Positions 114-25,518 of a stretch of 44,442 nt of DNA are shown one piece after another (position 1 is the first letter of the stretch; each line of letters starts with the position of its first letter). A model generated the notes under the pieces. That model was not told the origin of the DNA and did no database searches. It saw nothing but the letters and a program-made list of their open reading frames with translations. Made by a program: the position numbers and the translations under genes. The DNA is from Candidatus Margulisiibacteriota bacterium (GTDB lineage: Bacteria > Margulisbacteria > WOR-1 > O2-12-FULL-45-9), in contig JAYEOW010000019.1 of NCBI GenBank assembly GCA_034723395.1, positions 1 through 44,442 of the forward strand. Direction: 5' to 3'.

Positions 114-2234
114 TTAAATATCAGTAAATTCTCGGAGGATACTTAACATAGCTTTTGTGTTTTCTCCGCCAATTCTGATATCCGGCTGCAGGAGTCCTTT
201 TAAAACGATTTCCCATTTATCTAACGATTCAGAGGATATGTCAGCTTCGACGCCTAAAGCTTCTTTTAGATCTGAATAGCGATTGATCGTTTTCCAAGGG
301 AGATGTTCAGCAAAAAGTTTTTTGGCTTTAGCTAGATCATTATTTGATAGAGACATGCAGGCATGCATGGCGTAAATGAAGGAGCCAAAAGCGAGGTCCA
401 TAAAACCGCCCTTTTCTTTTCCGAGCTCTTTCCATTTGAAGAGCCGGTTCGCCCTCTTCAAGAGGCGTTCAAGCGGTTCTGTGCCGGGTCCGGACCGAGC
501 TTTCCGCAGATCTATTCGCATAAGCCCGAGCCGGGCCTTGACAGCGATAAAGCGGATTTTTGATTTGTCTTCACCTCTCCAAAACAAAGTCGGCTCAAAA
601 CTCTTCCAGCTCCCCAGCCAGAGGGGGATAGAAGTCGTATCCTGTTCCGCGGTCGCCCATTTGTCCACCTTCGAATAAAGCGCTCTTGCTTTATGGTAAA
701 GTTCACGGCGTTCATAAGCTTGCGCGCGGGTGAGGCGGCCGCGGTTTTTATAACCGGGAACAGAATCGGGGCTGACGTTCTGGGCCAATACCATCCAGCG
801 GTTTGAGAGCTTCTTTTCGGCCTGTTTAATCCAGGCAAGCGCTTTCCTCTCTTTTCCAAGCTCAAGATAGAGGTCACAGATCTTTAAGTATATCTCAAAA
901 TATTCCCGGACATATTCGATCTTGGGATGGTAAACCAGGCTTTTATCCGGGCTTTTAAGAGCTTTTTTTAAATGGCGCAGCGCTTTGTATCTATAAGCCT
1001 TTTTATCCTTTTTAAGCGGGGTCAATCGAGCAAGCTCGCGGTAAGCGTCCGCCGCCTGCAGCCTTAATTTGTTATTGACCTGCGGGGTGCGGTTTGAGCT
1101 TATATAGCTCTCCCGATTATTTATAAATGATTGGATTTCTTCTATCTGCCTCGCATTGCTGCCTGTCCAGTAAGTCATTTCGATAACAGGGCAATTGGCC
1201 GGCATAAAGCCAGAGAACAACTGTTTCTGTTCACCGTCGCGGGTAACGATGTTTCCGTCGAGATCTAATTTACCAAGAGCCTGGCGGTATGCTTTTACCG
1301 CTTGATCGTTTTGAATCATAAAGCTGGTAAAATTGCCGTTTCCGTCAGTTTCGGAGAAGTTAAAATAGATAAAACCTTTTATCCTCCAGGCTTTGAAGTG
1401 CTTCATGATCTCGGTAAAGAATTCTGCTTTTTCTGCCGGGGTGCCGCTTGAGCCAAACCTCCCGATCATGAGCGGTTTGCCATGTTTTTTAAGTTGTTTG
1501 ATCGTGGCAGCTATTTGATCCCGAAGCGCGCTGATCGGTTCTCCCTTGTGGTGATAGAAGTTAAGCGCTACCCAATCCACGTATTTATCACCGGGATAGT
1601 ATTGATCTATATTTTCTCCCAGGTTCACGTTCCAGACCCACGTAATGTTACGGCCATACTCGGATACCTTTTCGTGGATGCGGCGGTGGGCCTGGATAAA
1701 AAGTTCGGGCCGTTTTGTCCAGGGTTCAGGCCCGGTGTTCATTCCAGGAGCAAAAGCGACGAAGGCCGGGCCATCGTAAGCAGCAGCTCCTTTGCCATAA
1801 GCGGTGAGTTCCTTGTCGTACTTTCCATTGACAATATCCATCAAAAGGCTCTTCCCGCCTTTCCCTTTCCACGGTTCAAGGGCGATAAAAATCGATCCGC
1901 CGCGATCGCTTACCTGCTCTGCCTCGGCAACCGGGAAGGGCTTATCGGACTGCAGTTCCTTAAAGTTTTGAAAACGGAAGGCGATGTCTACTTTTTCTCC
2001 AAATTTACTTTCGAAGCAAAGAAGGTGCGCCCGGTCCGGCGTATGATTTACCCAGCTGCCAGAATATATTTTTCCGTCGGGAGGAGGCTGGATCTGATGG
2101 GTGGGGGAGCCCTTTTTATAAGGATCGATACAACCTTTTTTAAAACCGTAGGAAGCGCTGCCCAGCGCAAGCAGGGCGGGGAACCCCCATTTAAACGCCC
2201 AGGCACCTATTCTTTTAGTTCTTGCCCATTTCAT
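114..2234 (-). CDS. Membrane-anchored GH26-like domain (catalytic Glu residues replaced) fused to a TPR-like helical C-terminus
   Basis: GH26 motifs LEPW, G-K-Y-D, WVWN, YYPGDKYVDWVA, KPLMIG are present. HEMN is APGMN and GEF is GRF. C-terminal half is Ala/Leu/Tyr helical repeat-like. Start moved to ATG 2234 (ATGA overlap with upstream stop, GGAAGGAG RBS). Confidence 0.75.
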   Translation of the reverse strand: MKWARTKRIGAWAFKWGFPALLALGSASYGFKKGCIDPYKKGSPTHQIQPPPDGKIYSGSWVNHTPDRAHLLCFESKFGEKVDIAFRFQNFKELQSDKPFPVAEAEQVSDRGGSIFIALEPWKGKGGKSLLMDIVNGKYDKELTAYGKGAAAYDGPAFVAFAPGMNTGPEPWTKRPELFIQAHRRIHEKVSEYGRNITWVWNVNLGENIDQYYPGDKYVDWVALNFYHHKGEPISALRDQIAATIKQLKKHGKPLMIGRFGSSGTPAEKAEFFTEIMKHFKAWRIKGFIYFNFSETDGNGNFTSFMIQNDQAVKAYRQALGKLDLDGNIVTRDGEQKQLFSGFMPANCPVIEMTYWTGSNARQIEEIQSFINNRESYISSNRTPQVNNKLRLQAADAYRELARLTPLKKDKKAYRYKALRHLKKALKSPDKSLVYHPKIEYVREYFEIYLKICDLYLELGKERKALAWIKQAEKKLSNRWMVLAQNVSPDSVPGYKNRGRLTRAQAYERRELYHKARALYSKVDKWATAEQDTTSIPLWLGSWKSFEPTLFWRGEDKSKIRFIAVKARLGLMRIDLRKARSGPGTEPLERLLKRANRLFKWKELGKEKGGFMDLAFGSFIYAMHACMSLSNNDLAKAKKLFAEHLPWKTINRYSDLKEALGVEADISSESLDKWEIVLKGLLQPDIRIGGENTKAMLSILREFTDI

Positions 2235-4789
2235 CGTGCTCTCCTTCCAACAATCCTCGACCAGACAACTCTTTGAATGACATCGATAAATAACCATTCC
2301 TTTATCAGATTCCAGGGGGTGTCGTATTGTTTCTTAGCATCAATATTTTGTTCTGCTTTTTTGTAAATTGCCTGGTCTTTGAGATAGCGTGTCCAAGCCC
2401 AGGCGGTTCCTATTCCCATATAGAGCGACCAAACCGTATTCATAAGCAGACCGGTTAACAGGCTTGCTTCAAAAGCGGCGGCAGCTAACCCGGTAACTGC
2501 AAAATATCCGCCAGCAATTATAGAAACTGTTGTAGCGACAAATTTAATTACACTTTGATATCGTTTTGTCCGTTCGCCCGGCCAGATCTTTTCCATGATA
2601 TTTTTAAGGATGATCGATCCGCCGACGGCAATCCCTAACGGCCAGAGCGCGCCGGCTGCGGCGGCAATTGCCCCAGCTTTTCCGGCGAAGGCGGCAATCG
2701 CCATATAGGTTGTTCCGGTTAATCCGGCGGCAAGCGGAACCGCGGTAAACGGCCAAAATACTTTCCGTTTTACCGAAGGCTCAATATTTTTACCCGGCAT
2801 CTGGGCTGTTGAAGCGAATGGCCCGAATCCTTCGTCTTCCATATGGAGGGTCCCCTGGGCGATCGATGGCATATATAGATACCAATAGAAGATATCCTTC
2901 GGCAGGAAGCCGATCGTCCGGCTCGGACTGACCCCTACTTTCCCCATCTGCCTGGAGTACGCTGGCCAGCCGAAAAGCGTTTTCCCCGCCCATATCGTTA
3001 AAAAGAGCATGGTTGCCGGCAGGGGGGTCATACCAAAAAAGATATAGAGAGAAGGGGTAATGGCAAAGGCGTATTTTACAACGGTATCAAAGTACCACGA
3101 GCCGGTATTGATCCATTCATGGCTTTGGGCGGCAGTATAGGTATGTGGAATCTTTTTGCGGGCAAATATTCGTCCAGCCAAAGGAAGTTTCGATAGGGCG
3201 CCGTAAGCGCGATGCCTTACCCATTCATCTTTAACATATTTAAAGGCGAAGGATAAAAAGTAGCCGATCATCGCTCCCCAACGGCGACGTTGTCCGTAAC
3301 CGGCCTTAACCGTTTCGATGGTTGCGGCGATACTTTTTACCTCGGGATCGTACATGGTGTGTTCATCAAATACCAGGGCTTTTTCATGCGCTCCTTGAGC
3401 GTCTTCGGTAATCGTTATTAAGTGCATTAGCTGCGACCATTGCGGCCGTTTTAGTTCGACATCTTCCATCATAAAGAGGCGATCGATCCAGACTGCCCGG
3501 TCCATTCCGTTTGATCCGGTAAAGATCGCTGCCTGCGAAATAAACTTACCTTCTTGTAAGCTATGTCTCCCCTTGGGCATAAACCACGGAGTTTTTCTCC
3601 CTTCCACTTCTCCATGCGGATAAGCAAGGAAGCTGCGCATATCTTCTCCAAAATATCCCAGCTGGTCGTGATAAGGCCAGATTTGGCTCTCAACCTCCGG
3701 CTGTAATGGGGCAAAGTGTTGGGATGCGACTACCTGACTAAGCATCCCATCTTTTACTCCGGATCCGAGATCATCACGCGGATCACCTTCTGGATGCATA
3801 TGAGTAGCATTTTTTTTGTTCTCTTCGGTTCGAGCAGGGAAGGATTGGACTTTTTTATCAAATGGCATCCACTCAACGGCCCCTTCGGTTTTGCCATTGC
3901 TTTCGTTTAAATGCACTAATTTTAATGAGGATCTTACCCGGACAACCGTTGCGTCATATCCATCCTTGAGTTCTAGTCCCTTAACCTTAAATTTGCTTTT
4001 GGAGGTAAGGGTGACCTTTAGATAAAAACGTGGAGAGGTTTTGTCGATAACGGTATCTTCCCCCAGCCCTTCCGGAGCTGGCTTTCTTGATTCTACGCTC
4101 CAGCGTTTGGTAAAAACTTTGGCGGTGTATGGGTCAGTGGAATCGTTCGGATTATGAAAAACTTCGACCTTACCCTGTTTAATTGCTTTGTGCAGACCGT
4201 ACTGGGTGATGTCAAAATCTTCATAGTCTAGATATCTCCTTGCTTCACTTAATTGTTCGCGGTAGTGAACGCGGAGAGTTTTACCTTGGTCAAGAACTTC
4301 AACTCGGTCTGCCCACTGGATATTGGGGATCTGCATATCGGTGAGTTCGATAACCCCGGTCCGGTGGCCATGGGTGAGTTCGAGTTCTTGTTCCCCGCTC
4401 TTTCTTACATGAATAACGTTATCAAGGCTCTTGCCAAGGAGCGGTCGAAGATATGCCCAGATGAAACCTTTGATCTTGCCGACCGAGACCCAGCGCATGG
4501 TTTCGACTTGGCCGTTGTCATCCCGTTTATACACGCCGACAACACATTTGCGGCTTCCGTCAATATTGTTTTCTTTAAAAAACTGTTTTGCCCGCAAGGT
4601 TTCGGCATCGGTAGGGGCCAAGACACCGACATTAGGATGTTCCTCGCTGCCGATTTTGTATCCGAGTTTACGGGCATTCCATAAATAGCGCTTGCCGGTA
4701 AAGCGGGCGGCGGTAAAACGGATCGCCCGGCCGAGCAGCCCGAAACGGATGCTCTGTGGATTGGTATTTTTAATAAATGGGATGGCCAC
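2231..4789 (-). CDS. Cellulose synthase (BcsA)-like GT2, C-terminal catalytic half plus transmembrane helices
   Basis: SQVVASQHF (cf. VQTPQxF), FTGSNG (cf. FCGS), TITED (3401-3409), QRRRW (3278-3292), then WYF..AITPSLYIFFG and several TM segments. No PilZ recognisable. GTG start with GGAGG RBS. Confidence 0.8.
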   Translation of the reverse strand: MAIPFIKNTNPQSIRFGLLGRAIRFTAARFTGKRYLWNARKLGYKIGSEEHPNVGVLAPTDAETLRAKQFFKENNIDGSRKCVVGVYKRDDNGQVETMRWVSVGKIKGFIWAYLRPLLGKSLDNVIHVRKSGEQELELTHGHRTGVIELTDMQIPNIQWADRVEVLDQGKTLRVHYREQLSEARRYLDYEDFDITQYGLHKAIKQGKVEVFHNPNDSTDPYTAKVFTKRWSVESRKPAPEGLGEDTVIDKTSPRFYLKVTLTSKSKFKVKGLELKDGYDATVVRVRSSLKLVHLNESNGKTEGAVEWMPFDKKVQSFPARTEENKKNATHMHPEGDPRDDLGSGVKDGMLSQVVASQHFAPLQPEVESQIWPYHDQLGYFGEDMRSFLAYPHGEVEGRKTPWFMPKGRHSLQEGKFISQAAIFTGSNGMDRAVWIDRLFMMEDVELKRPQWSQLMHLITITEDAQGAHEKALVFDEHTMYDPEVKSIAATIETVKAGYGQRRRWGAMIGYFLSFAFKYVKDEWVRHRAYGALSKLPLAGRIFARKKIPHTYTAAQSHEWINTGSWYFDTVVKYAFAITPSLYIFFGMTPLPATMLFLTIWAGKTLFGWPAYSRQMGKVGVSPSRTIGFLPKDIFYWYLYMPSIAQGTLHMEDEGFGPFASTAQMPGKNIEPSVKRKVFWPFTAVPLAAGLTGTTYMAIAAFAGKAGAIAAAAGALWPLGIAVGGSIILKNIMEKIWPGERTKRYQSVIKFVATTVSIIAGGYFAVTGLAAAAFEASLLTGLLMNTVWSLYMGIGTAWAWTRYLKDQAIYKKAEQNIDAKKQYDTPWNLIKEWLFIDVIQRVVWSRIVGRRAR

Positions 4790-4790: not shown

Positions 4791-7700
4791 TTACTCTACC
4801 TCCGCAGGTTCATAATGGGTCATATATTCGCCGACCGGTATAAAGCGTTCATATAAGGTTTGTTCAATTAGATGATCTCTAAGACTGATATATTCAAAAT
4901 AGCTGATTTCGTTTTTTCCGTTGTAGGTGACTCCAGCTGGAAGGGTAACCATTCCACGATCATCAACTTTTGGAGCACTATCTTTTATCTCCTGGCTGGA
5001 TTCTTCGTATTCTTTTGGAGAGAGCGGCTTAAAGGCGACGATTGTATCCCAAAGTGAACGATCGACCACTGTTCCGTCCCTGGTTATAATATCCCCATTA
5101 TTGTTGCGACGGGCTATTGTGTATTTTACAAATGGATTAGGCCCGACTTTTTCCGGGTGAATATTGATCTCTGCCCTAGTTCCTTCATAATGTTCTGGAG
5201 CGTTTAGGTGGAGTGGATACCAAAGATAGCGATAGTACTCTTTCTTCTCTCTCGTTGTTTTTCCTTTTTTTGAAACTACGCTGGTATATTTAATCTTTAC
5301 TCTCAAGGCTCGGTCATAAGGACAGTCCGTGTCGGTTTGAGGGGTGACCAGGCGTACGCCTGCTTTTGTATCGATCATTTTCCACTCGGGGACAAAAACA
5401 TTTTCATTTACTCTGCGTAGATTATCAGTTGCATAAACATCTTTAAGCCGTGGGAAGAGCTCTTTTTGCATATTGTAAGGGACGTGTATTTTTCTGCCGG
5501 TTCCGGCTTCGGTTACCTTCAGGGTAAAGAAGGCGATGGTAGGGGAGACCATCATGATTTTATCATTTGGTGAATCGAGCATTTTGCGGTCGGCAGGCAA
5601 CTTGCGCTTCTCCTTAACTCTCCATTGCATGAAGATATATGGGGTTTTCATATCGGCCTCGTAATTGGCCAAAAAGTCGGTAACAATTAAATCGACCTGT
5701 TCGGCATCACTCAATGATTGAAACGGGCCACGATCAAAAAAGAAATATTTTGGATTAAGTTCGGGCAGTTTTACCCAGCGATAGTCGTGTTGGCCGTTTT
5801 TGCCGATTTTTGTTCCTTTGTAATTAGATAAAGGTTCGCAAACCAATAGTTCATCAGCAGGTTCGGCAGTTCCAGCGAGCCAAAGGATTCCATTTTTCAT
5901 ATATTCTTTCCTTCCCATACGGCGGGAGGTAAATTCATTTCGGTTGTTTATATATTGGCCAGTCCCATCTCCGTAGAGGCGGAGCCTTGATCCATTGCGA
6001 TAGACGACGTCGAAAAATTCATTTGCTTCAAGTTGAGGAATGGTTTGATCGAACTGAGTTGGGTATTTACGCAGGTCATGTTTGTGTTGTGCAAAATGGA
6101 CGCTATTATCGATGTAGAGGATATCAGTTTGGTTATCACCGATGGTATGGATTGGCCGATCAACCCATTTGTAGCGATTATCTTCACCGGGACGGCTATC
6201 TACATTTCTAGCTTCACGATAGTTAGCTTCATCTGCCGATTCTCTCCAGATATGTTCATCGTGTTCGGTTTTTAACATGCGGGATACTTTGGTTGGAATT
6301 AATTTTTGATAAAATCTTTGATTTTTAGGATCGTGCATAACTAATGGAATGCCGGTTCCAATATTACGGAGTCCTTCCTGGTAAAGATTGGTGGTTGCTA
6401 TTTTTGCGATACTTTTCCTAAGTAATACATTTTCAAATTGGAAAGGGGGGATCATCATGATTGGAATATTATGTTTGCGATAGAGTTGATCTGTAGCTCT
6501 TTTTAAGATGATTATTACTTCTTCATGAGATGGTTTTAGCATGCTGCTCCCCGGCATATTTTCTCCACCCACCCGGTACGCATCTGCTATTCTCCGAAGC
6601 TGTTCTGCTCTTTCCAGGTTCTCTGTCCCTCCAAGGAATTCCATCCTTCTTCCGAGGGCCCGGTTATGTTCGATATTTGGCTTATCTTTTCCTATATTGG
6701 CTTCGTTTCCAAAGAAACGCGGCCGGTCTGCAAACCCTTTAAAACCCATTGCTCCGAAATTTCCCTGGTACATGGGAGTCCCATTGTTATCGGCACACGG
6801 TTCCATTACATTTCTTGCAAAGCGTTCGTAGAAAGCGGCTAGTGCCTCCAGTGCCCCTACCGTATTTCCTTCTCGATCACATTGTTCAATTTGTTGATAG
6901 GTCTCTTTGATCCATCCCCTGTATCTTGTGTTCATTTCCATCAATTTATTGAGACCCGCGTACATGATGTTGAATCCGCCTTCATGAAGTTGTGGCGACA
7001 TGCCGTTGGTATGGGCCATAGTGGTATTTGTTCCTTGGCGGGTGTGAATGTTTAAGAAGAGGGCGGGGACGATTTCGGGAAAGTTTCCCGGAAATCCTGT
7101 TTTAAAAATAGTTACATGCTGGGATTCGGGAGCCATGGCAGCCGCCATAACATCTTGATCTGTATATATTCTTTGCGGGGTATTTTCAACCAACCGGGCC
7201 GATGTATCCCAGCGCCAGGCGTGTTGGAAACCAAATGCTTCAGCCATAAAGAAAGTAAATGCAGCCAGCAAGTTAAGCGCGTACGTCGGGCCGGCGGCAG
7301 ATACCATGGTTGTTGCCAAAGCTCCAGCGACGGCGAGCTTGGTCGCGGCGGCCAAACCTTTCTTTGGCTTGGTGCTGATCTGGGTCGGGTTAACCAGCTT
7401 TGCGATCGATCGGTGGAGCCCAAAGTAGTAAGCGAGCCCCAATCCCGCGCCAAGCAGCATATCTCCGACAAATGCACCCGGGGTCATCAGATTAAAGGCC
7501 ATTCTTAGGCCGACCCCGGCAGTGATTGAAAAGACAGTTACCGCGCGATAAGCCATATAGGTTGCATTGAAGAATTGAGAAGCATAGGCGAGAAGGATAG
7601 TGATTGCTTTATTGCGGGAGCTCATTTTTTGCAGATCAAGTTTTACAACCCGGCTGTTATTATAAAGCGCTTTACCAATTTCAATGCTTGCCTTAGTGGC

Positions 7701-8432: not shown

Positions 8433-8461
8433 TATATCGACAATTTTTGGTGAAAATTTCA
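8433..8461 (-). promoter_or_regulatory. Sigma-28-like promoter motif TGAAA-N16-TCGATATA
   Basis: Upstream of the three-gene GT2/GH26 operon; one of nine copies of the motif. Confidence 0.75.
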
Positions 8462-9920: not shown

Positions 9921-9949
9921 GTTATCGACGTAAACCCAAGGAGATTTCA
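9921..9949 (-). promoter_or_regulatory. Sigma-28-like promoter motif TGAAA-N16-TCGATAAC
   Basis: 20 nt upstream of ATG 9900. Confidence 0.75.
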
Positions 9950-13557: not shown

Positions 13558-13586
13558 TGCAATTTTCACTAAAAGTTAACGATAAT
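13558..13586 (+). promoter_or_regulatory. Sigma-28-like promoter motif TGCAA-N16-ACGATAAT
   Basis: 8 nt upstream of ATG 13595. Confidence 0.7.
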
Positions 13587-16265: not shown

Positions 16266-18356
16266 TTAAACCTCACTAAGGTAACTTCCCATTAATGCTC
16301 TTCCGTTATATTTAGCGATTGTTCTGCACATAGCTTCGACCTTGTCGCCGAGGCCGGGAGCGTTTTCTCCTCTTCCCCTTTCAAAACGATGCAGATTCTC
16401 GGTGATCCGTCCGGCGACCTTGCGGAAATTTCCGATAAAACCGTTAGCTAAGAGAAAAGGCGAGAGCCCTACTAAAGATCGATTGGCCCAAAGATCGTCG
16501 TGCAGGCTGTGGTTTCCGACAAAAGTGGTCGGACCGTAAATGTGTACGGTTGGCAGCGAAGCGAGCGATCCTGCTCCCCCGTCGTCGGGGCCGATAATAT
16601 AGGCGCCGTTGGCGGCCGCTTTCATATAACTGGGGCCGAAAGCTTCGGTCCCTTGTGACCGCTTGTGGCTAATCGGATTAGTTGCCCCGACCCAGCAGCC
16701 GGACATCGCCAGCCCCGGAAAGATCCAGGGAGCTTTATCTATATCGTAACCAATCAGAAAATCGGCTTTAAATTTTCCACCGCGATTATTTATGTTTTGT
16801 ATAAGACCTAAAAGATTTTGCAGGCTGTCGATCGAAGGGTGATCGGCCTGGTGGGCGAGGCCGCCGAGGAGATAAAAGATCGGTCTTTTCAGGTCGGCAG
16901 CAATTTCCTCGAATATCTCATGCTGTCTCAGGATATCCGTTAAGAGACCTATTTTATACTTGGTCGCCCGGCGCAGGGAGGCGATAATAATTGCTTCTTT
17001 CGGGATGTTTTCTCCGAATTTTGTGGGAAAGTTTTCATTCAGCATTTTAAGTAAATGAGTGTGTTGAATGTCAAAAGCCTGGGCCAAATCTTCCCGAAAA
17101 CCGGGGTTTAGCCGAAGGCGGTCGATAACCGTCCTTTTTCCCAGTATTGAAGGATTTTCCCTCCATTCAGGAAAATGTTTATCCAAAGCCCCAAGTGTTC
17201 CTATCCCCAGCCACCGGTCCATGGCGATTGTGTCCGGAAAAAGTTTGAGCGAGCCGGCGTCCACGTTACCTGGAAGAAGCTGTGGAGCGTCGCTGGAAAA
17301 ACCGCGGCGTCGGGCTTTTTCTTCCGCGCCGGTCACCATCAGGTGGAGAGGGGATACCCCTCCGGCAGAATGGCTTAGCGAAATTTCCGCAAACATAGCA
17401 TTGGTCATTTTCCCGTCTTCAGCCCCGAAAAACCCCCATATTTTTTCAGCCTCTTCCGAGTAATGCCGGCGGACCATGTCCCCGTGAGTGCGGGGGACGG
17501 TCCCGACCTGAGGGGCATGAATGGTGGCCACGCATAATTTTCGGGTAAGCTGGAGGGCGACCTCCGGGTCATTATGGATTTTCAATAGATGGAGGTAGAG
17601 ATTTAATTTAAATAAGGCGGTATGGCCATCGTGTCCGATGACCAGGTCGGTAATATGGTCTTCTACGCCGATGATTCCAAAATGCTGGGCAACCTTGAAT
17701 CCGCCCGCGCCTAAAACGTGCATCTGGTCAAAATTTTCGGAAGAATCGTGTTTGGGATACATTTTTCCGGTCACTTCCGGCATCCGCAGGCGCAATGAGA
17801 GGAGAGAATCCTTCTCGCTTTCAAACCCTTTGAACAACCAAACTTCGACCGGCCGCTGTTTCCCATTAAAATTAATACTGACCGGATTACCTAAGAATTC
17901 ATAGTTGGCTGATTGTTCCGGCCGGGTACTGATAAATTTGATCCTTTGCCGGTTCCCCTCAAAAGTCTGCGAGCGTTTTTGGGTGTGGAGCAGGCTTATA
18001 TGTAAAAGACCGTAGTTATCCTGCGCGCCGTAAGTGGCTGCGGTGGACGCGATCGTCTCGCCGATGATCCCCAGTCCGCCTGCGCCTCCCGGCGGTTCAC
18101 TCTGACTCGACTGCATTTGTTGCCAGATCCGGCCTAATTCGATCGAGCGCATTCCATTGGAGGAATTAAGTAAAGTCATTGCCCGATCTTTGTAGATCTG
18201 GCGGACGAGCTGGGTTGTGGTGGGAGAGTGTAAGACTTCCATGCAGACATCAACGGCAGTCCTGTGCCCTGGATTTTGTTGTTTCAACCGGCGTTGATGC
18301 TTTACCCATTGGGCAACATATCTTAAACCAGCTTGTGAAATTTTGTTTGCCATCAT
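16266..18356 (-). CDS. Divergent alpha-glucan phosphorylase (GT35-like)
   Basis: GGLGIIG, HDGHTAL (cf. NEGHAA), TIHAP (cf. TTHTP), RRATKYK, GLAHQAD (cf. GKAHP.D), GYD, EAFGPSYMKAAANG (PLP-lysine motif). Confidence 0.75.
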   Translation of the reverse strand: MMANKISQAGLRYVAQWVKHQRRLKQQNPGHRTAVDVCMEVLHSPTTTQLVRQIYKDRAMTLLNSSNGMRSIELGRIWQQMQSSQSEPPGGAGGLGIIGETIASTAATYGAQDNYGLLHISLLHTQKRSQTFEGNRQRIKFISTRPEQSANYEFLGNPVSINFNGKQRPVEVWLFKGFESEKDSLLSLRLRMPEVTGKMYPKHDSSENFDQMHVLGAGGFKVAQHFGIIGVEDHITDLVIGHDGHTALFKLNLYLHLLKIHNDPEVALQLTRKLCVATIHAPQVGTVPRTHGDMVRRHYSEEAEKIWGFFGAEDGKMTNAMFAEISLSHSAGGVSPLHLMVTGAEEKARRRGFSSDAPQLLPGNVDAGSLKLFPDTIAMDRWLGIGTLGALDKHFPEWRENPSILGKRTVIDRLRLNPGFREDLAQAFDIQHTHLLKMLNENFPTKFGENIPKEAIIIASLRRATKYKIGLLTDILRQHEIFEEIAADLKRPIFYLLGGLAHQADHPSIDSLQNLLGLIQNINNRGGKFKADFLIGYDIDKAPWIFPGLAMSGCWVGATNPISHKRSQGTEAFGPSYMKAAANGAYIIGPDDGGAGSLASLPTVHIYGPTTFVGNHSLHDDLWANRSLVGLSPFLLANGFIGNFRKVAGRITENLHRFERGRGENAPGLGDKVEAMCRTIAKYNGRALMGSYLSEV

Positions 18357-18361: not shown

Positions 18362-18390
18362 AATATCTGCGGGGAAAAATAAAAATTTCA
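18362..18390 (-). promoter_or_regulatory. Sigma-28-like promoter motif TGAAA-N16-CAGATATT (variant), probably leaderless
   Basis: 5 nt before ATG 18356; same spacing as the other copies. Confidence 0.6.
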
Positions 18391-18399
18391 CTTTATTTA

Positions 18400-18408
18400 T
18401 GCTATAAT
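18400..18408 (+). promoter_or_regulatory. Extended -10 promoter TGCTATAAT
   Basis: 6 nt upstream of ATG 18415. Confidence 0.65.
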
Positions 18409-18414: not shown

Positions 18415-18822
18415 ATGGTTAGAATGAAACCGAAATTTTCTGGATTTAGAAAGCGGGGGGAGAAGGTCTTCGAAAAGGGCGGGATATATATGCTCGAAGG
18501 AGAAGGGACCGACATCGGCTGTAATCTGGTTTTCCAGGAGGATATCTTTAGACCGTCATTCCTTGAGATGGAGGTGCGGGGGAAGATCGATAAAGGGGCG
18601 GAATGGACCCGGCTGCGGATCGAGATCTATGATAAAGGGAAGCCGGATGAGCCAGCCGACTCTTTTGAAGGTGATTACTTAAATCTTGATCTAAGCGAAG
18701 AACTGTTTAAGAAGCTAACTTTTCCGGTCTTAGGGATTGTAAAATGCCCGAGCAAGGTCCAGTTTATGATCGTTGGGCCCTCCAGTTCGAAGCTTGAAGT
18801 CAAAAACGTCTCTATCAGGTAA
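18415..18822 (+). CDS. Hypothetical beta-rich protein, first gene of the GH26/ABC operon
   Basis: Stop overlaps the next start (TAATG). Start moved to ATG 18415, after the extended -10. Confidence 0.6.
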   Translation: MVRMKPKFSGFRKRGEKVFEKGGIYMLEGEGTDIGCNLVFQEDIFRPSFLEMEVRGKIDKGAEWTRLRIEIYDKGKPDEPADSFEGDYLNLDLSEELFKKLTFPVLGIVKCPSKVQFMIVGPSSSKLEVKNVSIR

Positions 18823-19775
18823 TGCGCGGTTTATGTATATTCCTTATTCTTATTTCTATCGTTGGCTGTGGTTCCTCTAGCGTGACACCCCAACCCAAGG
18901 GCCCAGATATCTTAACCAATTTTACCGGATGCGCCGTTGGCGCATTTGTAAATGGAATGGGCAATATTTCCGACTTTCAAACGATGATTGGTAAAAATTT
19001 AGCGGTAATCCTCTGGTATGTCCACTGGCAAGATCCTTTTCCAACCGCTGATGCCGATACAGTTTACAATAATGGGAGTGTCCCCCTTATAACCTGGGAA
19101 CCTTGGATTACTCACGAGCTTGGAACGCTGGAAGCGATTGCTGCGGGGAGTTATGAGAGTTATGTTACCCAATTTATCCAAGACGCCAAGGATTGGGGCG
19201 GGCCGGTATTGCTCCGTTTTGCCCACGAAATGAATGGTAATTGGTATCCATGGGATGGATATCATAATGGAGCGACTTTGGAAGCGGCTACCAAGTATAA
19301 AAATGCCTGGATCTATATATATAATGTAAAGCAGCAGCTAAATGCCGATAATGTTTATTTAGTCTGGACTCCAAATAATACTAATCTTCCTGCGGAATCC
19401 TGGAATGAGATCGCCAACTATTATCCCGGCGATCAATATGTGGACTGGGTAGGAATGGACGGCTACAATTGGGGCTATGGGAATTGGCAGGAGTTTGATG
19501 CAGTTTTCAGCTCGATCTATCAGGCACTTATCCAGCTTACCAATAAACCGATCATGGTCGGGGAGTTTGCCTCGGCAGAGCAAGGCGGCAGTAAATCGAG
19601 CTGGATAATCGATGCAATGGCCAAACTCCAATCGAGCTATCAGAACGTAAAGATATTTTGCTGGTTTAATATCAATAAAGAACGCGATTGGCGGGCAAAC
19701 TCTTCCTCGACCTCTGAAGCAGCCTTCAGGCAAGGCTTGCAAGACGATTACTTTTTAGATACAATTAGGGAATGA
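18822..19775 (+). CDS. GH26 glycoside hydrolase lipoprotein (beta-mannanase family)
   Basis: Lipobox IVGC; TWEPW, RFAHEMNGNWYPW, YYPGDQYVDWVGMDGYN, KPIMVGEFA. Both catalytic Glu present. Confidence 0.9.
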   Translation: MRGLCIFLILISIVGCGSSSVTPQPKGPDILTNFTGCAVGAFVNGMGNISDFQTMIGKNLAVILWYVHWQDPFPTADADTVYNNGSVPLITWEPWITHELGTLEAIAAGSYESYVTQFIQDAKDWGGPVLLRFAHEMNGNWYPWDGYHNGATLEAATKYKNAWIYIYNVKQQLNADNVYLVWTPNNTNLPAESWNEIANYYPGDQYVDWVGMDGYNWGYGNWQEFDAVFSSIYQALIQLTNKPIMVGEFASAEQGGSKSSWIIDAMAKLQSSYQNVKIFCWFNINKERDWRANSSSTSEAAFRQGLQDDYFLDTIRE

Positions 19776-20716
19776 AGCCTAAGAAAAAGGACCTCTGGGC
19801 TAGAATTAAGCAGTACAGTTTTGCCTACTACTTCATACTGCCGACCGCCCTTGCCATGCTTTTTCTCCACCTTTCACCGATCGTTCAAGGGATCTACATG
19901 TCATTCCTAAAGTTGAACCAGTTTACGCTTCAGCAATATCTATTGGCTCCCTTTGTCGGTTTTGACAATTATTATAAGGTTTTGATCGATGCGGGCAGCC
20001 CTATCCGTATCGGGCTTTTTGAGGCGGTCAGAAATACATTTATTTATACCGTTGTGGTTACGATGGGGACCTTAGGGGTTGGCATGGTCGTTGCCTTAAT
20101 GATGAACCGCAAATTTTTTGGAAGGCCTATCATCAGGACCCTCTTCCTTTTTCCATGGATTGTCCCGACTTATGTTACTGGTCTTCTCTGGGGAATCATC
20201 TGGTTAAAACAGGGGGGGCTTGTCAACGTCATGCTTGCCGATTGGTTAAAGATATTACCTTTTAAGCCCTCTTGGCTCTCCGGACCCAATACGATGTGGG
20301 CGATCATTATCCCTACGGTATGGCGCTACTGGCCGCTTTCGATGCTGATGCTTTTGGCCGGACTGCAGACGATTCCGGAAGAGCTTTATGAGGCGGCGGA
20401 TATCGATGGGGCGAACCCCTGGAGGAAATTCTGGATGATCACCTGGCCGATGTTGCGGCCGGTCTGGTTTATCCTGATCCTTTTCGGATTGATCTATAAT
20501 ACCTACTCTTTTAACATTGTTATTATGATGTTCGGTTTCGGAGCGGGGTATCCGGGGGAGTGGGGAGACTTGATGATGACCAATATTTTCCGCAACTCGT
20601 TCCAGCTCTGGAATTTTGGCACCGGGGCCGCTACCTCGGTCGTTTTACTGGTGGTCATGATTATTATTGTGAATGTATGGTTTAGATATTTTAAGAAGAG
20701 CGAGGAGATGAGATGA
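19772..20716 (+). CDS. Carbohydrate ABC transporter permease (MalF/UgpA-like)
   Basis: FVGFDNY; LAGLQTIPEELYEAADIDGA EAA loop; about 6 TM. Confidence 0.92.
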   Translation: MKPKKKDLWARIKQYSFAYYFILPTALAMLFLHLSPIVQGIYMSFLKLNQFTLQQYLLAPFVGFDNYYKVLIDAGSPIRIGLFEAVRNTFIYTVVVTMGTLGVGMVVALMMNRKFFGRPIIRTLFLFPWIVPTYVTGLLWGIIWLKQGGLVNVMLADWLKILPFKPSWLSGPNTMWAIIIPTVWRYWPLSMLMLLAGLQTIPEELYEAADIDGANPWRKFWMITWPMLRPVWFILILFGLIYNTYSFNIVIMMFGFGAGYPGEWGDLMMTNIFRNSFQLWNFGTGAATSVVLLVVMIIIVNVWFRYFKKSEEMR

Positions 20717-22149
20717 AGCTGTCTTATTATGCGAAGAAGCGGATAACGGATATTATTATTAATGTATTCATGCTTTTATTCCTGGCCTTAACTATTCTCC
20801 CTATCGGATGGATGGTTTATTCATCGCTAAAGGATTCTACCGATATCGCGATCGGTAAGGTCGGTTTACGGACCGCCGGGACAAATATTTTAAAGATAAT
20901 TCCAGAAAAAGAAAACTTGATCGCCTTAACCGGAGATGGCGCGATCAATCTGGTCCAGGCCAAGGATCTGAAGGTTAAGAAACATAAATCTTATAAAACT
21001 AATGCAACCTCCTACCTTGTAGATGATAAATATATCTGGATCGCCTCTGCCAATCGCGGATTGATCCGGGTAGACCGCACAAATTATAACAAGAGCAAAA
21101 GATTTAAGCTCCCGCTCTGGGGCTTTGAAATGCATAAGGTGCCGAGTACATATATTAAGAAAGATGGAGATAGTATCTATGTCTCTATGGACTATAAGGG
21201 ATTCAGGGATGTGTTGAGGTTTGACCCAAAATATATGAAGTTTATGAAGTTGATAAAAGGGGCTAAAGGGCGTTATTTTCCAAACGCGGGGACAATAAAG
21301 ACTGAAGAATTTCCAGGGATAAATGAGGAGGTCTTTTCGAAAGTGAGAGCAGGCAGTTTTCTTTTTCTCGGATCGAGCAGCGGGAAGTTTTATAAATATG
21401 ATCTTAATAAGAAAAAGATCGTTAAAAAAATCAGGCTTCCGCGCGGGCACACGCTGGTCAGGTGGTATAACTACGTCGACATGTGGAAAAACGTTAATTT
21501 CGGCCTCTACCTGCGAAATTCGATCATTATCTGCGGGATCACAATGTTGATCGCCATGGTTGTTTCTACCATGGCGGCTTACGCGCTTTCGCGTTTCCGG
21601 TTCCCGGGGGCGGACCTATTTTCTAACGGGATCCTGGCTACCCAGATGATCCCGGCGATCATGTATTTGATCCCTTTATACATAATGTTTGTTAGATTTA
21701 CCATTTTAACCGGGATCCCGGTTAAAGGGACGTTCCCTGGAATAATTCTGATCTATTCTGCCTTTTTTATCCCATTTTCGATCTGGATCCTGCGCGGATT
21801 CTTTGCCGCGATCCCAAAACAGCTGGAAGAAGCGGCGCTGATCGATGGTTGTTCACGCTTCAAGGTTTTCTGGCATATTGTCTTACCTCTGGCGGTGCCG
21901 GGGATCATAGCTACCGGTATCTACATCTTCCTGACCGCCTGGGATGAACTGATGTTTGCCTGGGTGCTGACTAACGCGGATACAATGACGATTCCGGTCG
22001 GAATCCGTCTTTTTGTCGGCAATTACCAGAACCGGTTCGACTTAATGATGGCTGCCGCCACGGTTGCAACCCTTCCGGTGGTTGTGTTATTCTTTATGCT
22101 GCAAAAGCATATTGTTAAAGGATTAACCGCAGGAGCTGTGAAAGGATGA
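20713..22149 (+). CDS. Carbohydrate ABC transporter permease (MalG-like) with a large inserted soluble domain
   Basis: IPKQLEEAALIDGCS EAA loop, C-terminal QKHIVKGLTAGAVKG, and a ~200-aa beta-rich insert after TM1. Confidence 0.9.
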   Translation: MKLSYYAKKRITDIIINVFMLLFLALTILPIGWMVYSSLKDSTDIAIGKVGLRTAGTNILKIIPEKENLIALTGDGAINLVQAKDLKVKKHKSYKTNATSYLVDDKYIWIASANRGLIRVDRTNYNKSKRFKLPLWGFEMHKVPSTYIKKDGDSIYVSMDYKGFRDVLRFDPKYMKFMKLIKGAKGRYFPNAGTIKTEEFPGINEEVFSKVRAGSFLFLGSSSGKFYKYDLNKKKIVKKIRLPRGHTLVRWYNYVDMWKNVNFGLYLRNSIIICGITMLIAMVVSTMAAYALSRFRFPGADLFSNGILATQMIPAIMYLIPLYIMFVRFTILTGIPVKGTFPGIILIYSAFFIPFSIWILRGFFAAIPKQLEEAALIDGCSRFKVFWHIVLPLAVPGIIATGIYIFLTAWDELMFAWVLTNADTMTIPVGIRLFVGNYQNRFDLMMAAATVATLPVVVLFFMLQKHIVKGLTAGAVKG

Positions 22150-23870
22150 TTTCTATGAAATTAAGAATTACCAAGTCAGAATTAAGAAGAAAATCACAAT
22201 TTTTAATTCCCATTGGAGTTTGGTTATTAGTTATTATTTCATCATTCTGGTTTCTTAATTCGTCATTTGCCACTGCTATGTCTAAAGCCGCTAATGGCGG
22301 GGACGTAAAGGAGAACGAAGGTGTTTTTGTGGGTGTTTTTCGTGAAGGGGCACCGCGGAACATTAATTATATAAAGAAATATGAGAAAAAGACCGGCAAC
22401 AAGCCGGCGATGATCATGTGGTACCAGGATTGGGCGCAAAATTTCCCGTGGGACGCGGCAACCAGTGTTATAAATTATGGGGCGGTCCCGCATATTGTCT
22501 GGGAGCCATGGTACTGGAGCGATCATAGCAAGATCAAACTGCAGGACATTGTTGATGGTAAATGGGACCGTTATATCGAGACCTGGGCGAAGGAGATCAA
22601 GAATTTCCGCCACCCGGTATTTTTAAGGATCGCCCACGAGTTCAATATCGAAGGCTATCCGTGGGGGATCGTAAATAACGATAAGGACCCCGATTTGTAT
22701 ATCAAAGCCTACCGCCATATCGTTGACATTTTCAATAAAGAGAAAGTTAAGAATGTTAAATGGGTCTGGTGTTTCATGAACTATTCTCATCCGGATGAGT
22801 CGTGGAACGACTGGGAAAAGGCTTATCCTGGAGATGAGTATGTGGACTGGGTCGGGATCGACGGCTACAACTGGGGGACTACCCAGAGCTGGAGCGACTG
22901 GCAGGCATTTAATTATATGTTTCGCGAACAGATGCGACGTTCCAAAAAACTATGGCCGGGGAAACCAATTATGGTCGCCGAGTTTGCCTCAGCGACCAAG
23001 GGTGGCGATAAGGCGGCCTGGATAAAAGAGATCCCGGGATACCTTAAGAGCAGTATGCGGGATATCGACCTGATCATCTGGTTCGATCTCAAAAAAGAGG
23101 CGGATTGGAGGATTGCTTCGGATAAAAAATCTTTGGCGGCTTATAAGGAGATCATGAAAGACCCGATCTTTTTGAGTTCCGGGGATGACCTGGCCAATCT
23201 AAAAATACCGTCTAAAATAAAAGAGAAAAAAGTTGTATACGCGCAAAGAGCGAACTCGAAAATTACCATCGATGGATCATTAGCTGACTGGAATAAGTCT
23301 TCCCCGTTGGTCATGAAAGATAAATCATATTTTAAAGAAGGGAAACATTGGGGAGGAACCAAAGATCTTTCGGGGAGCGCTTATCTGATGTGGGACGACG
23401 AGAATCTTTATCTGGCAGCGGTTATTGCGGACAAAATTCCGCTGGTCAATGAGCAGGTCAAACAGAATATTTGGAATGGTGACGCGATCGAGATGGTACT
23501 AAGCGTAAATCCAAAAGCAGACCCAAAGCGAACCTCTTTTCGGCGCGGCGACTACCAGGTAGGGCTTGGAACCGGAGACGGGAAGAAAAACGCTCCAACC
23601 ATCTGGAACTGGCAGAGAAGAAGGGTCCCAAAAGGGAGTGAGATCAAAGTTAGAAAGACCAGCAGCCCATTGGGCTATGTGCTCGAAGCCAAGATCCCGT
23701 GGGCATTTTTTAGCATGAAAACGGCGCCTGCCAAAGGGATGAAATTAGGGTTTGATATCGCCTTTGACGATGCTGATTACACAGGCAAGCGTGAAAGGCA
23801 ATTTATCTGGAATGGCGACTATATGTTTTACAAGGATCCGAGCGTTTGGGGGCTCATGGAACTCAGGTGA
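22146..23870 (+). CDS. GH26 glycoside hydrolase with C-terminal CBM9/DOMON-like sugar-binding domain
   Basis: WEPW, RIAHEFN, YPGDEYVDWVGIDGYN, PIMVAEFA; then ITIDGSLADW, WDDENLYLA, GDAIE, YVLEAKIPW, GFDIAFDDAD. Confidence 0.9.
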   Translation: MISMKLRITKSELRRKSQFLIPIGVWLLVIISSFWFLNSSFATAMSKAANGGDVKENEGVFVGVFREGAPRNINYIKKYEKKTGNKPAMIMWYQDWAQNFPWDAATSVINYGAVPHIVWEPWYWSDHSKIKLQDIVDGKWDRYIETWAKEIKNFRHPVFLRIAHEFNIEGYPWGIVNNDKDPDLYIKAYRHIVDIFNKEKVKNVKWVWCFMNYSHPDESWNDWEKAYPGDEYVDWVGIDGYNWGTTQSWSDWQAFNYMFREQMRRSKKLWPGKPIMVAEFASATKGGDKAAWIKEIPGYLKSSMRDIDLIIWFDLKKEADWRIASDKKSLAAYKEIMKDPIFLSSGDDLANLKIPSKIKEKKVVYAQRANSKITIDGSLADWNKSSPLVMKDKSYFKEGKHWGGTKDLSGSAYLMWDDENLYLAAVIADKIPLVNEQVKQNIWNGDAIEMVLSVNPKADPKRTSFRRGDYQVGLGTGDGKKNAPTIWNWQRRRVPKGSEIKVRKTSSPLGYVLEAKIPWAFFSMKTAPAKGMKLGFDIAFDDADYTGKRERQFIWNGDYMFYKDPSVWGLMELR

Positions 23871-23896
23871 AATTATCTGGGCGATCGTCCGATAAA
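23868..23896 (+). promoter_or_regulatory. Sigma-28-like promoter motif TGAAA-N16-CCGATAAA (internal to the operon)
   Basis: Overlaps the upstream stop codon; followed by an AAGGAG RBS. Confidence 0.65.
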
Positions 23897-23913
23897 AAAT
23901 TATAAAGGAGAAA

Positions 23914-24639
23914 GTGATTGTTATGAAAATAGTTAGTTTGTTAGTTTGTCTAATGTTACTTGCCAGCAGCGGATTGGCAATGGGGGGGCCTTCTCCGGAA
24001 ATAGAGGAAGAGGGAGAAAGGGCGGTAAAAACCATTGCCGGGAATAAATATTTGATTGACGATTTTGAATCAGGCAGTTTAGGGTCTCCTCGCGATTGGT
24101 GGACATTTGATATTCAAAGTGCGGAGATCGCTTCGAATGATGACCTGATCCTGGGAGGCGAAGAGGTAGCGCGCAACGTCGGTAAATATTCGGTCGGGTT
24201 AAAGGGAAAGGCCAAGAATTGGTATGGCGGAGGGATTGGAACCTACGTGGCTAAAGAGAACCAGGACCTTTCGAATTTTAATTCATTTTCGGTAGATATT
24301 TACGGCAATGGTTCGGGAACCGCAAAGATCGAGCTTTATGATGACGATAACGGCAACTGGCAGATCGAACAAAATCGGGAGCAAAACTATAAGCCGTTGT
24401 ACGATGATAAATTAGTTTATGATGTCGTGATCGACTGGAAAGGGTGGAAGAACGTATCGGTCCTGCTGGATGATTTTGTCGATGATAACCCGGGAGTTGG
24501 AGACGATGTCTGGAATCCGGAGCAAAATGGAGAATCTGGGGGATTGCTGCAGCTGCAGATTATCTCTTTGGCTGACGAAGAAACCGGTAAAATAGATTAT
24601 AATCTCGATAATATTTACCTGACCGTAGACGAAGAATAA
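23914..24639 (+). CDS. Secreted carbohydrate-binding (CBM11/CIA30-like) protein
   Basis: Signal peptide; LIDDFE, DLSNFNSFSVDIYGNGSG, IDWKGWKNVSVLLDDF, LDNIYL. Start may be ATG 23923. Confidence 0.65.
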   Translation: MIVMKIVSLLVCLMLLASSGLAMGGPSPEIEEEGERAVKTIAGNKYLIDDFESGSLGSPRDWWTFDIQSAEIASNDDLILGGEEVARNVGKYSVGLKGKAKNWYGGGIGTYVAKENQDLSNFNSFSVDIYGNGSGTAKIELYDDDNGNWQIEQNREQNYKPLYDDKLVYDVVIDWKGWKNVSVLLDDFVDDNPGVGDDVWNPEQNGESGGLLQLQIISLADEETGKIDYNLDNIYLTVDEE

Positions 24640-24642
24640 TAA

Positions 24643-25518
24643 TTGAAGAAATTAATCCTTGTTGTATTAATAGCGATCAGCTTGGTCCCGCCGGCAGCGG
24701 CCAGTAGTGGAAGTGCCTCCGCGCATCCCCACGTTTTTTTAGAGCTTTGGAACAACCTGTCATACTATGACACCAACCTGGAGCGGTCGCGTTTCGCGTC
24801 GGTGTCAGGAAGATTTGAGGGGAAGGTGGGCCTTAATTTTTTTAATTATCCTCTTCAGTTTTACGGTGTTTATTACGGGGTTTCATCGCAGGACCCGAAT
24901 TATTATAATAATTCTCTTTTTTCAGGTGGTGGCGTGCGCGTGATGCCGTTTGGTGGACTAAGGGGACGGGGGATATTGGCCGATGTTATGCGGGAAGTAA
25001 AAATTTATTACGAGGATCTCTCTTCGAGTTATATGAAAGATGCTGCTTCGGCCGAAGCGGCGGGACTAGCTAAGACCGATAAAAGATACGGGATAGAAAT
25101 TTACCGCGAATGGAATTTGGATAATCCCGATTTTGGGGCGCCCTGGGGGGAGCTTTGGCTTAAATGTGATTATCGGGAGACAAACTTTGGCTGGGAAGAG
25201 TTTAATAACTACATTCTTTATTTCCAGCCAAAATTTGGACGCCATTTGGGAGACGGGATCGAAATTTATCTGCGTGCCGACGTAACCGCTTCCGGGAAAG
25301 AGGGACCTGCTTATTCATTTTTAAATATTGCCGATTATGGAGTAGGATTAAGATTTGAACCATGGAGACAGATTGGTCAAAAGGATGATCTCTTTCACAA
25401 ATTTAAAATGTTTGCAGAAGTATTGGGAGTTTCCTATTTAAAGGATAAACCGGCAAGCGCCGCTAATATGGTCGATTCGGATGTTCGCTTTGGCATTGAG
25501 TTCTCTTACGGAAGATAA
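24643..25518 (+). CDS. Exported protein, probable outer-membrane beta-barrel
   Basis: Signal peptide, aromatic alternating strands, C-terminal VRFGIEFSY. Confidence 0.55.
   Translation: MKKLILVVLIAISLVPPAAASSGSASAHPHVFLELWNNLSYYDTNLERSRFASVSGRFEGKVGLNFFNYPLQFYGVYYGVSSQDPNYYNNSLFSGGGVRVMPFGGLRGRGILADVMREVKIYYEDLSSSYMKDAASAEAAGLAKTDKRYGIEIYREWNLDNPDFGAPWGELWLKCDYRETNFGWEEFNNYILYFQPKFGRHLGDGIEIYLRADVTASGKEGPAYSFLNIADYGVGLRFEPWRQIGQKDDLFHKFKMFAEVLGVSYLKDKPASAANMVDSDVRFGIEFSYGR

Follow-up and report, generated by a model that had tools for sequence, protein, structure and literature searches.

A candidate synthase-dependent beta-glucan cluster with a split, BcsA-like enzyme beside a conserved, putative glucan cleavage and uptake operon in Margulisbacteria

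The 44,442-base contig JAYEOW010000019.1 of a Candidatus Margulisiibacteriota bacterium (assembly GCA_034723395.1), analyzed here in full and termed the window (contig C19; the genome bin spans 1.68 Mb at 97% completeness), carries two divergent gene sets, and raises the question of whether a member of this phylum makes an extracellular polysaccharide on one side of a promoter region and consumes it on the other. The left arm runs on the minus strand from 18356 down to 114, the right arm runs on the plus strand from 18415 to 25518, and the two meet at one 58-bp control region. An earlier note had described a self-contained island that makes and recycles a polymer, possibly a beta-mannan or glucomannan; all of the genes that it listed for both arms were present, as were the back-to-back promoters. 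Based on comparisons across 146 Margulisbacteria genomes (relatives are labelled G103-G130, the close ones belonging to families f1 and f2), we see an even chance that the left arm is an accessory, synthase-dependent beta-glucan cluster lying beside a conserved operon for beta-glucan cleavage and uptake. The notable part is the synthase family, which is rare, giant, split or fused, and recognizable only by half a BcsA active site.

The putative synthase is encoded by two adjacent minus-strand genes. The first subunit, TM1205 (4791-8408; 1205 aa), has N-terminal membrane helices (approximately residues 100-395) followed by around 800 soluble residues, and the second, TM852 (2231-4789; 852 aa), comprises a beta-rich N-domain, a TED motif (residues 461-463), a QRRRW motif (500-504), and then membrane helices. 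TM852 starts 1 nt past the stop of TM1205, the GH26 gene that follows overlaps the TM852 stop by ATGA, and TM1205 and TM852 are translationally coupled. Moreover, their homologs form one chain in two relatives, G112 (1772 aa) and G115 (2640 aa, beginning with a domain like that of the left-arm protein U680), and the pieces therefore belong to one enzyme. Among 5.8 billion proteins TM852 had four relatives and TM1205 two besides itself, while the TM852 profile recovered 28 cluster representatives among 1.84 billion. Within the phylum, 12 of the 146 genomes have TM852 and nine have TM1205, all of them belonging to two families of one order. A metagenome scan with TM1205 returned 17 pattern-matching stretches and a genome-contig scan (one alignment) returned 145 pattern matches, none of which encoded a relative.

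TM852 appears BcsA-like in its C-terminal half. The QRRRW motif (Q500-W504) lies approximately 38 residues after T461-E462-D463, and both align to the TED and QRxRW of BcsA. These residues are nearly invariant in the TM852 family, with ED, Q, R, and W retained in at least 90% of 24 sequences whose identity to the window protein is only 18-58%. When the TM852 profile was searched against all solved structures (E ≤10), all six matches were to BcsA (best E 0.0085). Additionally, hhalign gave a probability of 30% (E 5e-4) against E. coli BcsA alone, and of 70.6% (E 3.9e-5) against a profile built from six small GT2 proteins of the phylum and BcsA, the latter across 175 columns spanning TED, QRxRW, and the following helices. 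For the TM852 AlphaFold model, VIA gave a single long structural alignment, to E. coli BcsA 381-838 (270 residues, 17% identity, root-mean-square deviation 5.2), at a Z of 6.3 that is within the range reached by unrelated helical proteins. Foldseek, in the test for a GT-A fold joined to a channel, gave a probability of 0.97 but an E of 0.027. In the ESM Atlas, TM852 fell with GT2-type clusters at 0.87, at the level of a lead only and with a poor Atlas model (TM ≤0.22), and residues 396-1205 of TM1205 had no usable match.

Several results, of which the Z value is one, weigh against an active GT2 enzyme. TM852 and TM1205 matched no Pfam family at E 5 and no NCBIfam model at E 0.01, and a PF13632 search over the whole genome gave no match in the window. 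TM1205 had no PDB match, and its family profile recovered nothing from the PDB or from the BcsA and GT2 profiles. In the hhalign and PDB profile searches, neither protein yielded the nucleotide-binding half of GT-A with its DxD, and the TM852 alignments begin only at TED; candidate stretches for the first Asp or DxD were picked out only by eye (LNESNG and PEGD in TM852, and YIDNS and SDAEQVD in TM1205). AlphaFold pLDDT fell below 50 at residues 354-462 of TM852 and over the corresponding part of the fused G112 protein, and Foldseek with the G112 model recovered nothing at E ≤0.001. The predicted complex of TM1205 720-1205 with TM852 270-620 scored 0.00 against a mark of 0.32, and was counted neither for nor against. 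The putative GT2 identity thus rests on half a catalytic domain; the GT-A domain itself may be split between TM1205 and TM852. The split GT2 of the earlier note accordingly stands as a pair of coupled membrane proteins that are fused in G112 and G115, and falls short in that no GT2 model matches and the likeness to BcsA is confined to TM852.

The missing model matches, the missing DxD half, and the low-confidence folds would all be expected if TM1205 and TM852 were not an active glycosyltransferase, that is, if they formed some other membrane complex with a BcsA-like relic and the left arm were mainly a second, alternative-sigma set for alpha-glucan (glycogen-like) metabolism, for which the phosphorylase Phos696, the GlgA-like GlgA532, and the nucleotidyltransferase NTP448 together look like a glycogen trio. 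We consider this improbable: the near invariance of ED and QRxRW over 24 such divergent sequences suggests that catalysis is under selection, GlgA532 is not a conserved companion of the cluster, and a GH26 domain with intact catalytic residues lies behind the synthase in all five relatives, in the position of the glycanase in known systems.

The polymer type can be approached through the GH26 domains, of which the window has three, scoring 57.4, 50.5, and 25.3 bits with PF02156 against a cut-off of 20.2 (left-arm copy E 1.2e-5). The left-arm copy (114-2297, or 114-2234 if started at M22; minus strand) is an exported Lic26A-like protein with a helical C-terminal half. As the earlier note had said, it is catalytically dead, having lost both catalytic Glu when aligned to its paralogues (HE to PG and GEF to GRF). 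Both right-arm copies retain them. Specifically, GH26_317 (18822-19775, plus strand) is a predicted lipoprotein-type Lic26A-like beta-glucanase with HEMNG and VGEFAS in place, and GH26CBM9_574 (22146-23870, plus strand) is a predicted membrane-anchored Lic26A-like beta-glucanase with a CBM9 domain (CBM9_1 E 1e-20). In the five synthase-bearing relatives compared (G112, G129, G126, G120, and G115) the synthase-linked GH26 keeps both catalytic Glu, so that the loss is seen only in the window genome, where two active-type copies lie next door.

All of these domains match the Clostridium thermocellum enzyme CtLic26A in preference to any mannanase. GH26_317 matched it (PDB 2bv9) at E 4.5e-54 over 272 residues, the next solved structure and best mannanase being at 5e-9. 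GH26CBM9_574 matched it (PDB 2v3g) at E 2.8e-52, with the next solved structure at 1e-6 and the best mannanase at 3.6e-4. A profile of six synthase-linked domains (the window and the five relatives above) matched it at E 9.1e-47, with the next match at 1e-15 and the best mannanase at 2.5e-11. The GH26 family is described as dividing into mannanase, xylanase, and lichenase branches (PMC6556568), and the title of Taylor et al. 2005, cited there, gives the GH26 module of C. thermocellum endoglucanase H as a lichenase, CtLic26A. Because every GH26 domain of both arms falls in the lichenase branch, they point to a 1,3/1,4-linked beta-glucan or something close to it, and the polymer would more likely be a beta-glucan than a mannan.

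The mannan proposed in the earlier note, made by a bacterial counterpart of plant CslA that would convert GDP-mannose to beta-mannan or glucomannan for degradation by the GH26 enzymes, is for these reasons very improbable. In its favor, GH26 is mostly a mannanase family, and the first 160 residues of NTP448 match GDP-mannose pyrophosphorylases (E 2e-10 to 1e-9). Its basis is lost because the GH26 domains are of lichenase type, matching CtLic26A over their full length and surpassing every mannanase match by 25 to 45 orders of magnitude; furthermore, Pfam and NCBIfam searches of the arm's genes found no phosphomannose isomerase or mutase, and the arm holds alpha-glucan enzymes. The likeness to plant CslA comes down to a processive GT2-type enzyme with QxxRW; unlike that system, there is no evidence for use of GDP-mannose here and the partner GH26 domains lie outside the mannanase branches.

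Other observations concern the GH26 proteins. The C-terminal half of the left-arm protein is a separate gene in G129 and G126; a tetratricopeptide repeat (TPR) nature for this half was considered and not confirmed, given that ARM_TT21 reached only E 0.1 and the G129 counterpart had no Pfam match. In the metagenome protein P0022 (1027 aa), the C-terminal membrane part of the TM852 family is joined to a GH26 domain that lacks the nucleophile, and this is a second independent link between synthase and GH26. Elsewhere in the window's own genome, a 1709-aa frame (G000:C29, approximately 140970-142067, minus strand) starts with a further Lic26A-like GH26 that keeps both catalytic Glu.

How the synthase would be supplied with sugar is suggested by the genes upstream of it. 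The first left-arm gene, Phos696 (16266-18356, minus strand), encodes a divergent GT35 alpha-glucan phosphorylase-like protein that remained below the family cut-offs (PF00343, 19.9 bits against 27, E 2.5e-4; TIGR02094, 51 bits against 191.7, E 9.5e-14) and matched solved glycogen phosphorylases at E 1.4e-3. It is the sole PF00343 match of the genome, and orthologs with at least 46% identity were found in 13 other genomes, four of which also have TM852. Its SYMKAAANG stretch, seen by eye, resembles the pyridoxal phosphate-lysine motif.

Two further proteins appear to handle sugar nucleotides. U680 (10026-12068, minus strand) has an N-terminal domain like that of UDP-sugar pyrophosphorylases (approximately residues 1-470) and a separate C-terminal domain. 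The window protein alone had no Pfam match; its family profile matched UDP-GlcNAc (N-acetylglucosamine) pyrophosphorylases (UAP/AGX) at E 8e-7 to 5e-4, with the family's aGeatRLG aligned to their nucleotide loop GGQGTRLG, and the G129 counterpart passed Pfam UDPGP PF01704 (36.4 bits against a cut-off of 22, E 3.2e-9). Homologs of U680 were present in 25 of the 146 genomes. The C-terminal domain (residues ~485-680) stands alone in 800-1200-aa proteins of other genomes and has a weak profile match to the first domain of phosphoglucomutases (E 5e-4). NTP448 (8554-9900, minus strand) is a sugar-1-phosphate nucleotidyltransferase with a left-handed beta-helix, the architecture of GlgC and GDP-mannose pyrophosphorylase (NTP_transferase E 3.6e-18, plus Hexapep; the glgC models were far below their cut-offs), and its orthologs (40-42% identity) directly precede the synthase in G129 and G130.

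Glucose would be the sugar in our preferred interpretation, a beta-glucan-producing left arm, and some features of these two enzymes weigh against taking this as settled. The best solved relatives of U680 act on GlcNAc-1-phosphate, and NTP448 is about as similar to GDP-mannose pyrophosphorylases as to glucose enzymes, its solved relatives being, in order, a nucleotidyl transferase, UGPase, GDP-mannose pyrophosphorylases, and then GlgC. The sugar specificity of NTP448 cannot be read from its sequence. Two other left-arm genes also count against this interpretation. GlgA532 (14665-16263, minus strand, 2 nt behind Phos696) is a GT5 glycogen-synthase-like paralogue (Pfam Glyco_transf_5 E 4e-49) that nevertheless scored 263 bits with TIGR02095, below the GlgA cut-off of 328.45; the canonical glgA is on a separate contig, C38, and the best relatives of GlgA532 in the phylum are 36-37% identical, none of them in a genome holding the synthase. 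NAGPA441 (12149-13474, minus strand) has a weak phosphodiester-glycosidase (NAGPA) domain (PF09992 E 1.6e-7, residues 330-411), and no ortholog was found in the other 145 genomes, where all matches were short and none was better than E 1.5e-5. We take GlgA532 and NAGPA441 as additions made in this genome and not as conserved parts of the cluster. Between them, U357 (13595-14668) lies on the opposite (plus) strand and matched no Pfam or NCBIfam model. The earlier note listed neither NAGPA441 nor U357.

In relatives, the nucleotidyltransferases can carry regulatory domains. G129 has a UDPGP enzyme fused to a response-regulator receiver domain (L039:18142-19998), and G126 has two nucleotidyltransferases with receiver domains beside a histidine kinase (L045, G126:C1:321000-340999). 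Such fusions would place the supply of nucleoside diphosphate (NDP)-sugars under phosphorelay control.

Whether the two arms belong together was addressed through synteny. G129, G130, and G126 share with the window the core gene order of phosphorylase, UDPGP-like protein, NTP-transferase(s), TM1205, TM852, helical protein, and GH26, and G112 has U680, the fused synthase, and a GH26-helical protein. In G129 and G130, the arms are adjacent and divergent, as in the window. The right arm is itself highly conserved: U159, GH26, two permeases, GH26-CBM9, U241, U291, and pth (with mfd where the contig allows) are in the same order in 10 of 10 f1/f2 genomes examined, and all six of the more distant genomes compared keep the permease pair, three of them together with GH26-CBM9 and U241. 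We class the right arm as a core operon within the phylum.

These same comparisons supply the points against a functional connection. The right-arm permease perm478 is in 91 of 146 genomes (E ≤1e-10), against the 12 that have TM852, and is to that extent independent of the left arm; G126 carries the arms on separate contigs, the left one on contig 1 and the right one on contig 3; and the neighbor divergent from the right arm is not the same gene in every genus. This neighbor is Phos696 in G129 and G130, U680 in G103 and G109, an unknown protein of 1127, 776, or 483 aa in G104, G112, and G122, respectively, and in G117 a 1214-aa protein with a Ser/Thr kinase domain (L055:14770-18414), which lies behind the same promoter motif as the window's left-arm genes. 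It could be, then, that the arms are functionally unrelated, the right one being a core foraging operon for foreign beta-glucans and the site by its promoter a hot spot for alternative-sigma accessory genes, with the shared GH26 branch reflecting common domain ancestry; the low identity between synthase-linked and right-arm GH26 domains (~26-33% by tblastn) would fit this as well. We regard such a scenario as somewhat unlikely. In another family (G129 and G130), too, a phosphorylase diverges from the right arm and has the synthase cluster behind it, the GH26 domains of both arms all belong to the same rare lichenase branch, the synthase-linked GH26 is dead only in the genome with two active-type copies alongside, and one copy of the left-arm promoter motif lies within the right arm, before U241.

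Linkage of the arms, which the earlier note had proposed to check across relatives, is therefore retained in G129 and G130 and broken in G126. The self-contained island did not hold up, in view of the unequal distribution of permease and synthase, the varying flank, and the poor conservation of GlgA532 and the NAGPA-like gene. The make-and-recycle logic remains plausible, with the phosphorylase, NDP-sugar enzymes, BcsA-like synthase, and GH26 partner in a recurring order and the GH26 domains of both arms in one branch, although not as one island.

The control region joins two promoters of different types, as had been claimed. On the left, an alternative-sigma promoter TGAAAT-N16-AGATA (18364-18390, minus strand) ends 7 nt before the ATG of Phos696; on the right, a sigma-70-type extended -10, TGcTATAAT (18400-18408, plus strand), ends 6 nt before the ATG at 18415. 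The left arm has five exact minus-strand copies of TGAAAT-N16-(C/A)GATA: beyond that of Phos696, these precede NAGPA441 (13482-13508, 7 nt before the start), U680 (12115-12141), NTP448 (9923-9949), and TM1205 (8435-8461). U357 has its own copy with one mismatch (13558-13584, plus strand), and exact copies also precede U241 inside the right arm (23868-23894, plus strand) and, 12 nt upstream, an unknown gene at 26092-27066 (27079-27105, minus strand). Allowing up to one mismatch, the window has 12 motif sites, whereas 100 shuffles averaged 2.8 and never exceeded 7, and genome-wide there are 70 exact sites at a spacer of 16 but 1 to 6 at each spacer of 12-15 and 17-20. The motif also precedes U680 homologs in G112, G115, G103, G109, and G122, and synthase genes in G112, G130, G120, and G117.

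For the right arm, TGnTAnAAT is found 6-9 nt before the start of U159 in six of the 11 relatives displayed; in the other five the open reading frame start had been taken further upstream, so that the displayed stretch misses the place of the -10. A simple scan chose TTCACT-16-CATAAT instead of TGcTATAAT. As a fixed sigma-70 -35 box, TTTCAC at 18386-18391 was rejected, its spacing to the -10 varying from 9 to 18 nt among relatives, and we prefer to see in it the leftward TGAAAT box in reverse complement. Because several promoters end 6-10 nt before start codons, leaderless mRNAs are suggested on both sides of the control region. We infer that the RNA polymerase footprints of the two divergent promoters must overlap.

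The remaining right-arm genes are all on the plus strand. The first, U159 (18415-18822), encodes a small protein of 135 aa counted from M25, without a signal peptide or a family match, and its 135-aa orthologs align from residue 25. The ATP-binding cassette (ABC) permease pair comprises perm314 (19772-20716), of the MalF/UgpA type (BPD_transp_1 E 4e-19) and 82-90% identical in the f1/f2 relatives examined, and perm478 (20713-22149), of the MalG type, which has an extracytoplasmic insert of ~230 aa. Orthologs of perm478 of ~600 aa have beta-propeller matches (PQQ_2 E 2.6e-7). The insert is a beta-propeller of ~350 aa in distant relatives (L049:8275-10083 and L052:10322-12127) and is absent from the ~290-aa proteins of the sister family. 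A search covering the operon found no binding protein or ATPase for the permeases, which counts against a complete uptake system there. U241 (23914-24639) is a secreted acidic protein (signal peptide by eye and hydropathy) that is conserved in the operon and has a paralogue on contig C47. U291 (24643-25518) is a candidate outer-membrane beta-barrel, with a signal peptide, 7-11 alternating-strand windows, 23-28% G/Y/F/W, and a C-terminal RFG(I/V)(E/D)(F/M)S(Y/I)GR conserved in seven of seven orthologs; a barrel is plausible from these properties.

Comparison with characterized systems places the left arm closest to the synthase-dependent type. In the cellulose system BcsA-BcsB-BcsZ-BcsC, BcsZ is a glycanase and the TPR part of BcsC is an exported helical-repeat protein. 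Like that system, the window has TED and QRxRW followed by membrane helices in TM852, a large cytoplasmic part flanked by membrane helices, and a glycanase gene and exported helical-repeat protein directly behind the synthase. Unlike it, the window has no GT2 model match, recognizable DxD half, PilZ, or BcsB; the enzyme amounts to 2057 aa in two chains (1772-2640 aa when fused) with ~1100 cytoplasmic residues; and the partner hydrolase is a lichenase-type GH26, not GH8. No canonical BcsA was found above the TIGR03030 cut-off in any of the 146 genomes.

Bacterial precedents exist for a lichenase-cut product: BgsA of Sinorhizobium meliloti and RiGT2 of Romboutsia ilealis are reported to use UDP-glucose to form an extracellular (1,3;1,4)-beta-glucan that is cut by lichenase, and have the D, D, D, QXXRW signature (PMC10374906, PMC5567048). 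Those enzymes are described as ordinary GT2 proteins under cyclic di-GMP control, whereas alternative-sigma control, and receiver domains in relatives, are seen here, and the product would be as indicated by the partner hydrolases only. The main text of the RiGT2 paper (PMC10374906) does not mention GH26, and a narrow literature search found no bacterial synthase cluster with a lichenase-type GH26 partner, which is not proof that none is in print. The GH26 domains resemble CtLic26A (PDB 2bv9, 2bvd, 2cip) in full-length similarity and in the placement of acid/base (HE) and nucleophile (AEF/GEF), and differ from it in occurring as a lipoprotein and a membrane-anchored CBM9 form within an ABC-permease operon, with one copy fused to a helical-repeat domain and catalytically dead. 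Finally, the left-arm promoters are like those of the sigma-28 (FliA) type in having a two-box motif, a strict 16-nt spacer, 70 sites per genome, and a position before accessory genes; they differ in that, for several of them, 7-10 nt separate the end of the site from the start codon.

Beyond the arms, the window at 25.5-44.4 kb holds the housekeeping genes pth, mfd, MazG, FtsH, ValRS, RNase Y, and RecA. The unknown gene that lies behind an exact motif copy (26092-27066, minus strand) is between pth and mfd and encodes a 324-aa protein with a faint phosphotransferase/kinase-like match (APH, E 0.027). At the other end, the left arm runs to base 114 of a contig that starts at base 1, and may extend past the contig end. 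A DNA run from a brine metagenome was the only sequencing run that contained the window stretch, and may be its source.

Taken as a beta-glucan cluster beside an uptake operon, the locus would most likely work as follows. The left arm, read from alternative-sigma promoters, would make an extracellular beta-glucan by a synthase-dependent route, in which Phos696, with the GlgA-like enzyme adjoining, would free glucose-1-phosphate from storage glucan, and U680 and NTP448 would turn the sugar phosphate into an NDP-sugar. TM1205 and TM852 would then polymerize and translocate the chain, TM852 contributing the TED/QRxRW half of a BcsA-type domain followed by channel-like helices. Outside the membrane, the chain would be handled by the exported helical-repeat protein with its lichenase-type GH26, the active-site residues of which are kept in relatives and lost here. 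From its extended -10, the right arm would express two Lic26A-type beta-1,3-1,4-glucanases, a barrel-like outer-membrane protein, and the CUT1 permease pair to cleave and import a glucan of the same class, which may be self-made or foreign. Of this scheme, the family-level gene identities, the fusions, the promoter motifs, the synteny, and the GH26 branch were observed directly, whereas glucose as the sugar, the type of linkage, the role in export, and action of the right arm on the left-arm product are inferences.

A bolder version of this proposal would have TM1205 and TM852 represent a previously unrecognized giant synthase class, in which a BcsA-type half site is completed by a non-homologous module of ~1100 residues and coupled to its own NDP-sugar supply, so that, under control of an alternative sigma factor, glycogen-derived glucose-1-phosphate is channelled directly into a mixed-linkage beta-glucan outside the cell and the neighboring operon re-imports the polymer. 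Physical coupling to the NDP-sugar supply is proposed in view of the cis fusion of the UDPGP domain in G115 and of the receiver domains on nucleotidyltransferases in G126 and G129. As a whole, we hold this version to be unlikely, and put it forward tentatively.

Synthase-dependent exopolysaccharide systems are recognized by their GT2 domain, and because only half of that domain is recognizable here, within an enzyme of ~2000 aa that no family model finds, such systems escape current annotation. The fusion of UDP-sugar pyrophosphorylase and synthase, together with the receiver-domain nucleotidyltransferases, points to substrate channelling and to phosphorelay control of precursors, and the paired, apparently leaderless promoters offer a simple model of how the cell could alternate between production and consumption of a polymer. 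The locus thereby provides a testable candidate for beta-glucan production in the uncultured phylum Margulisbacteria.

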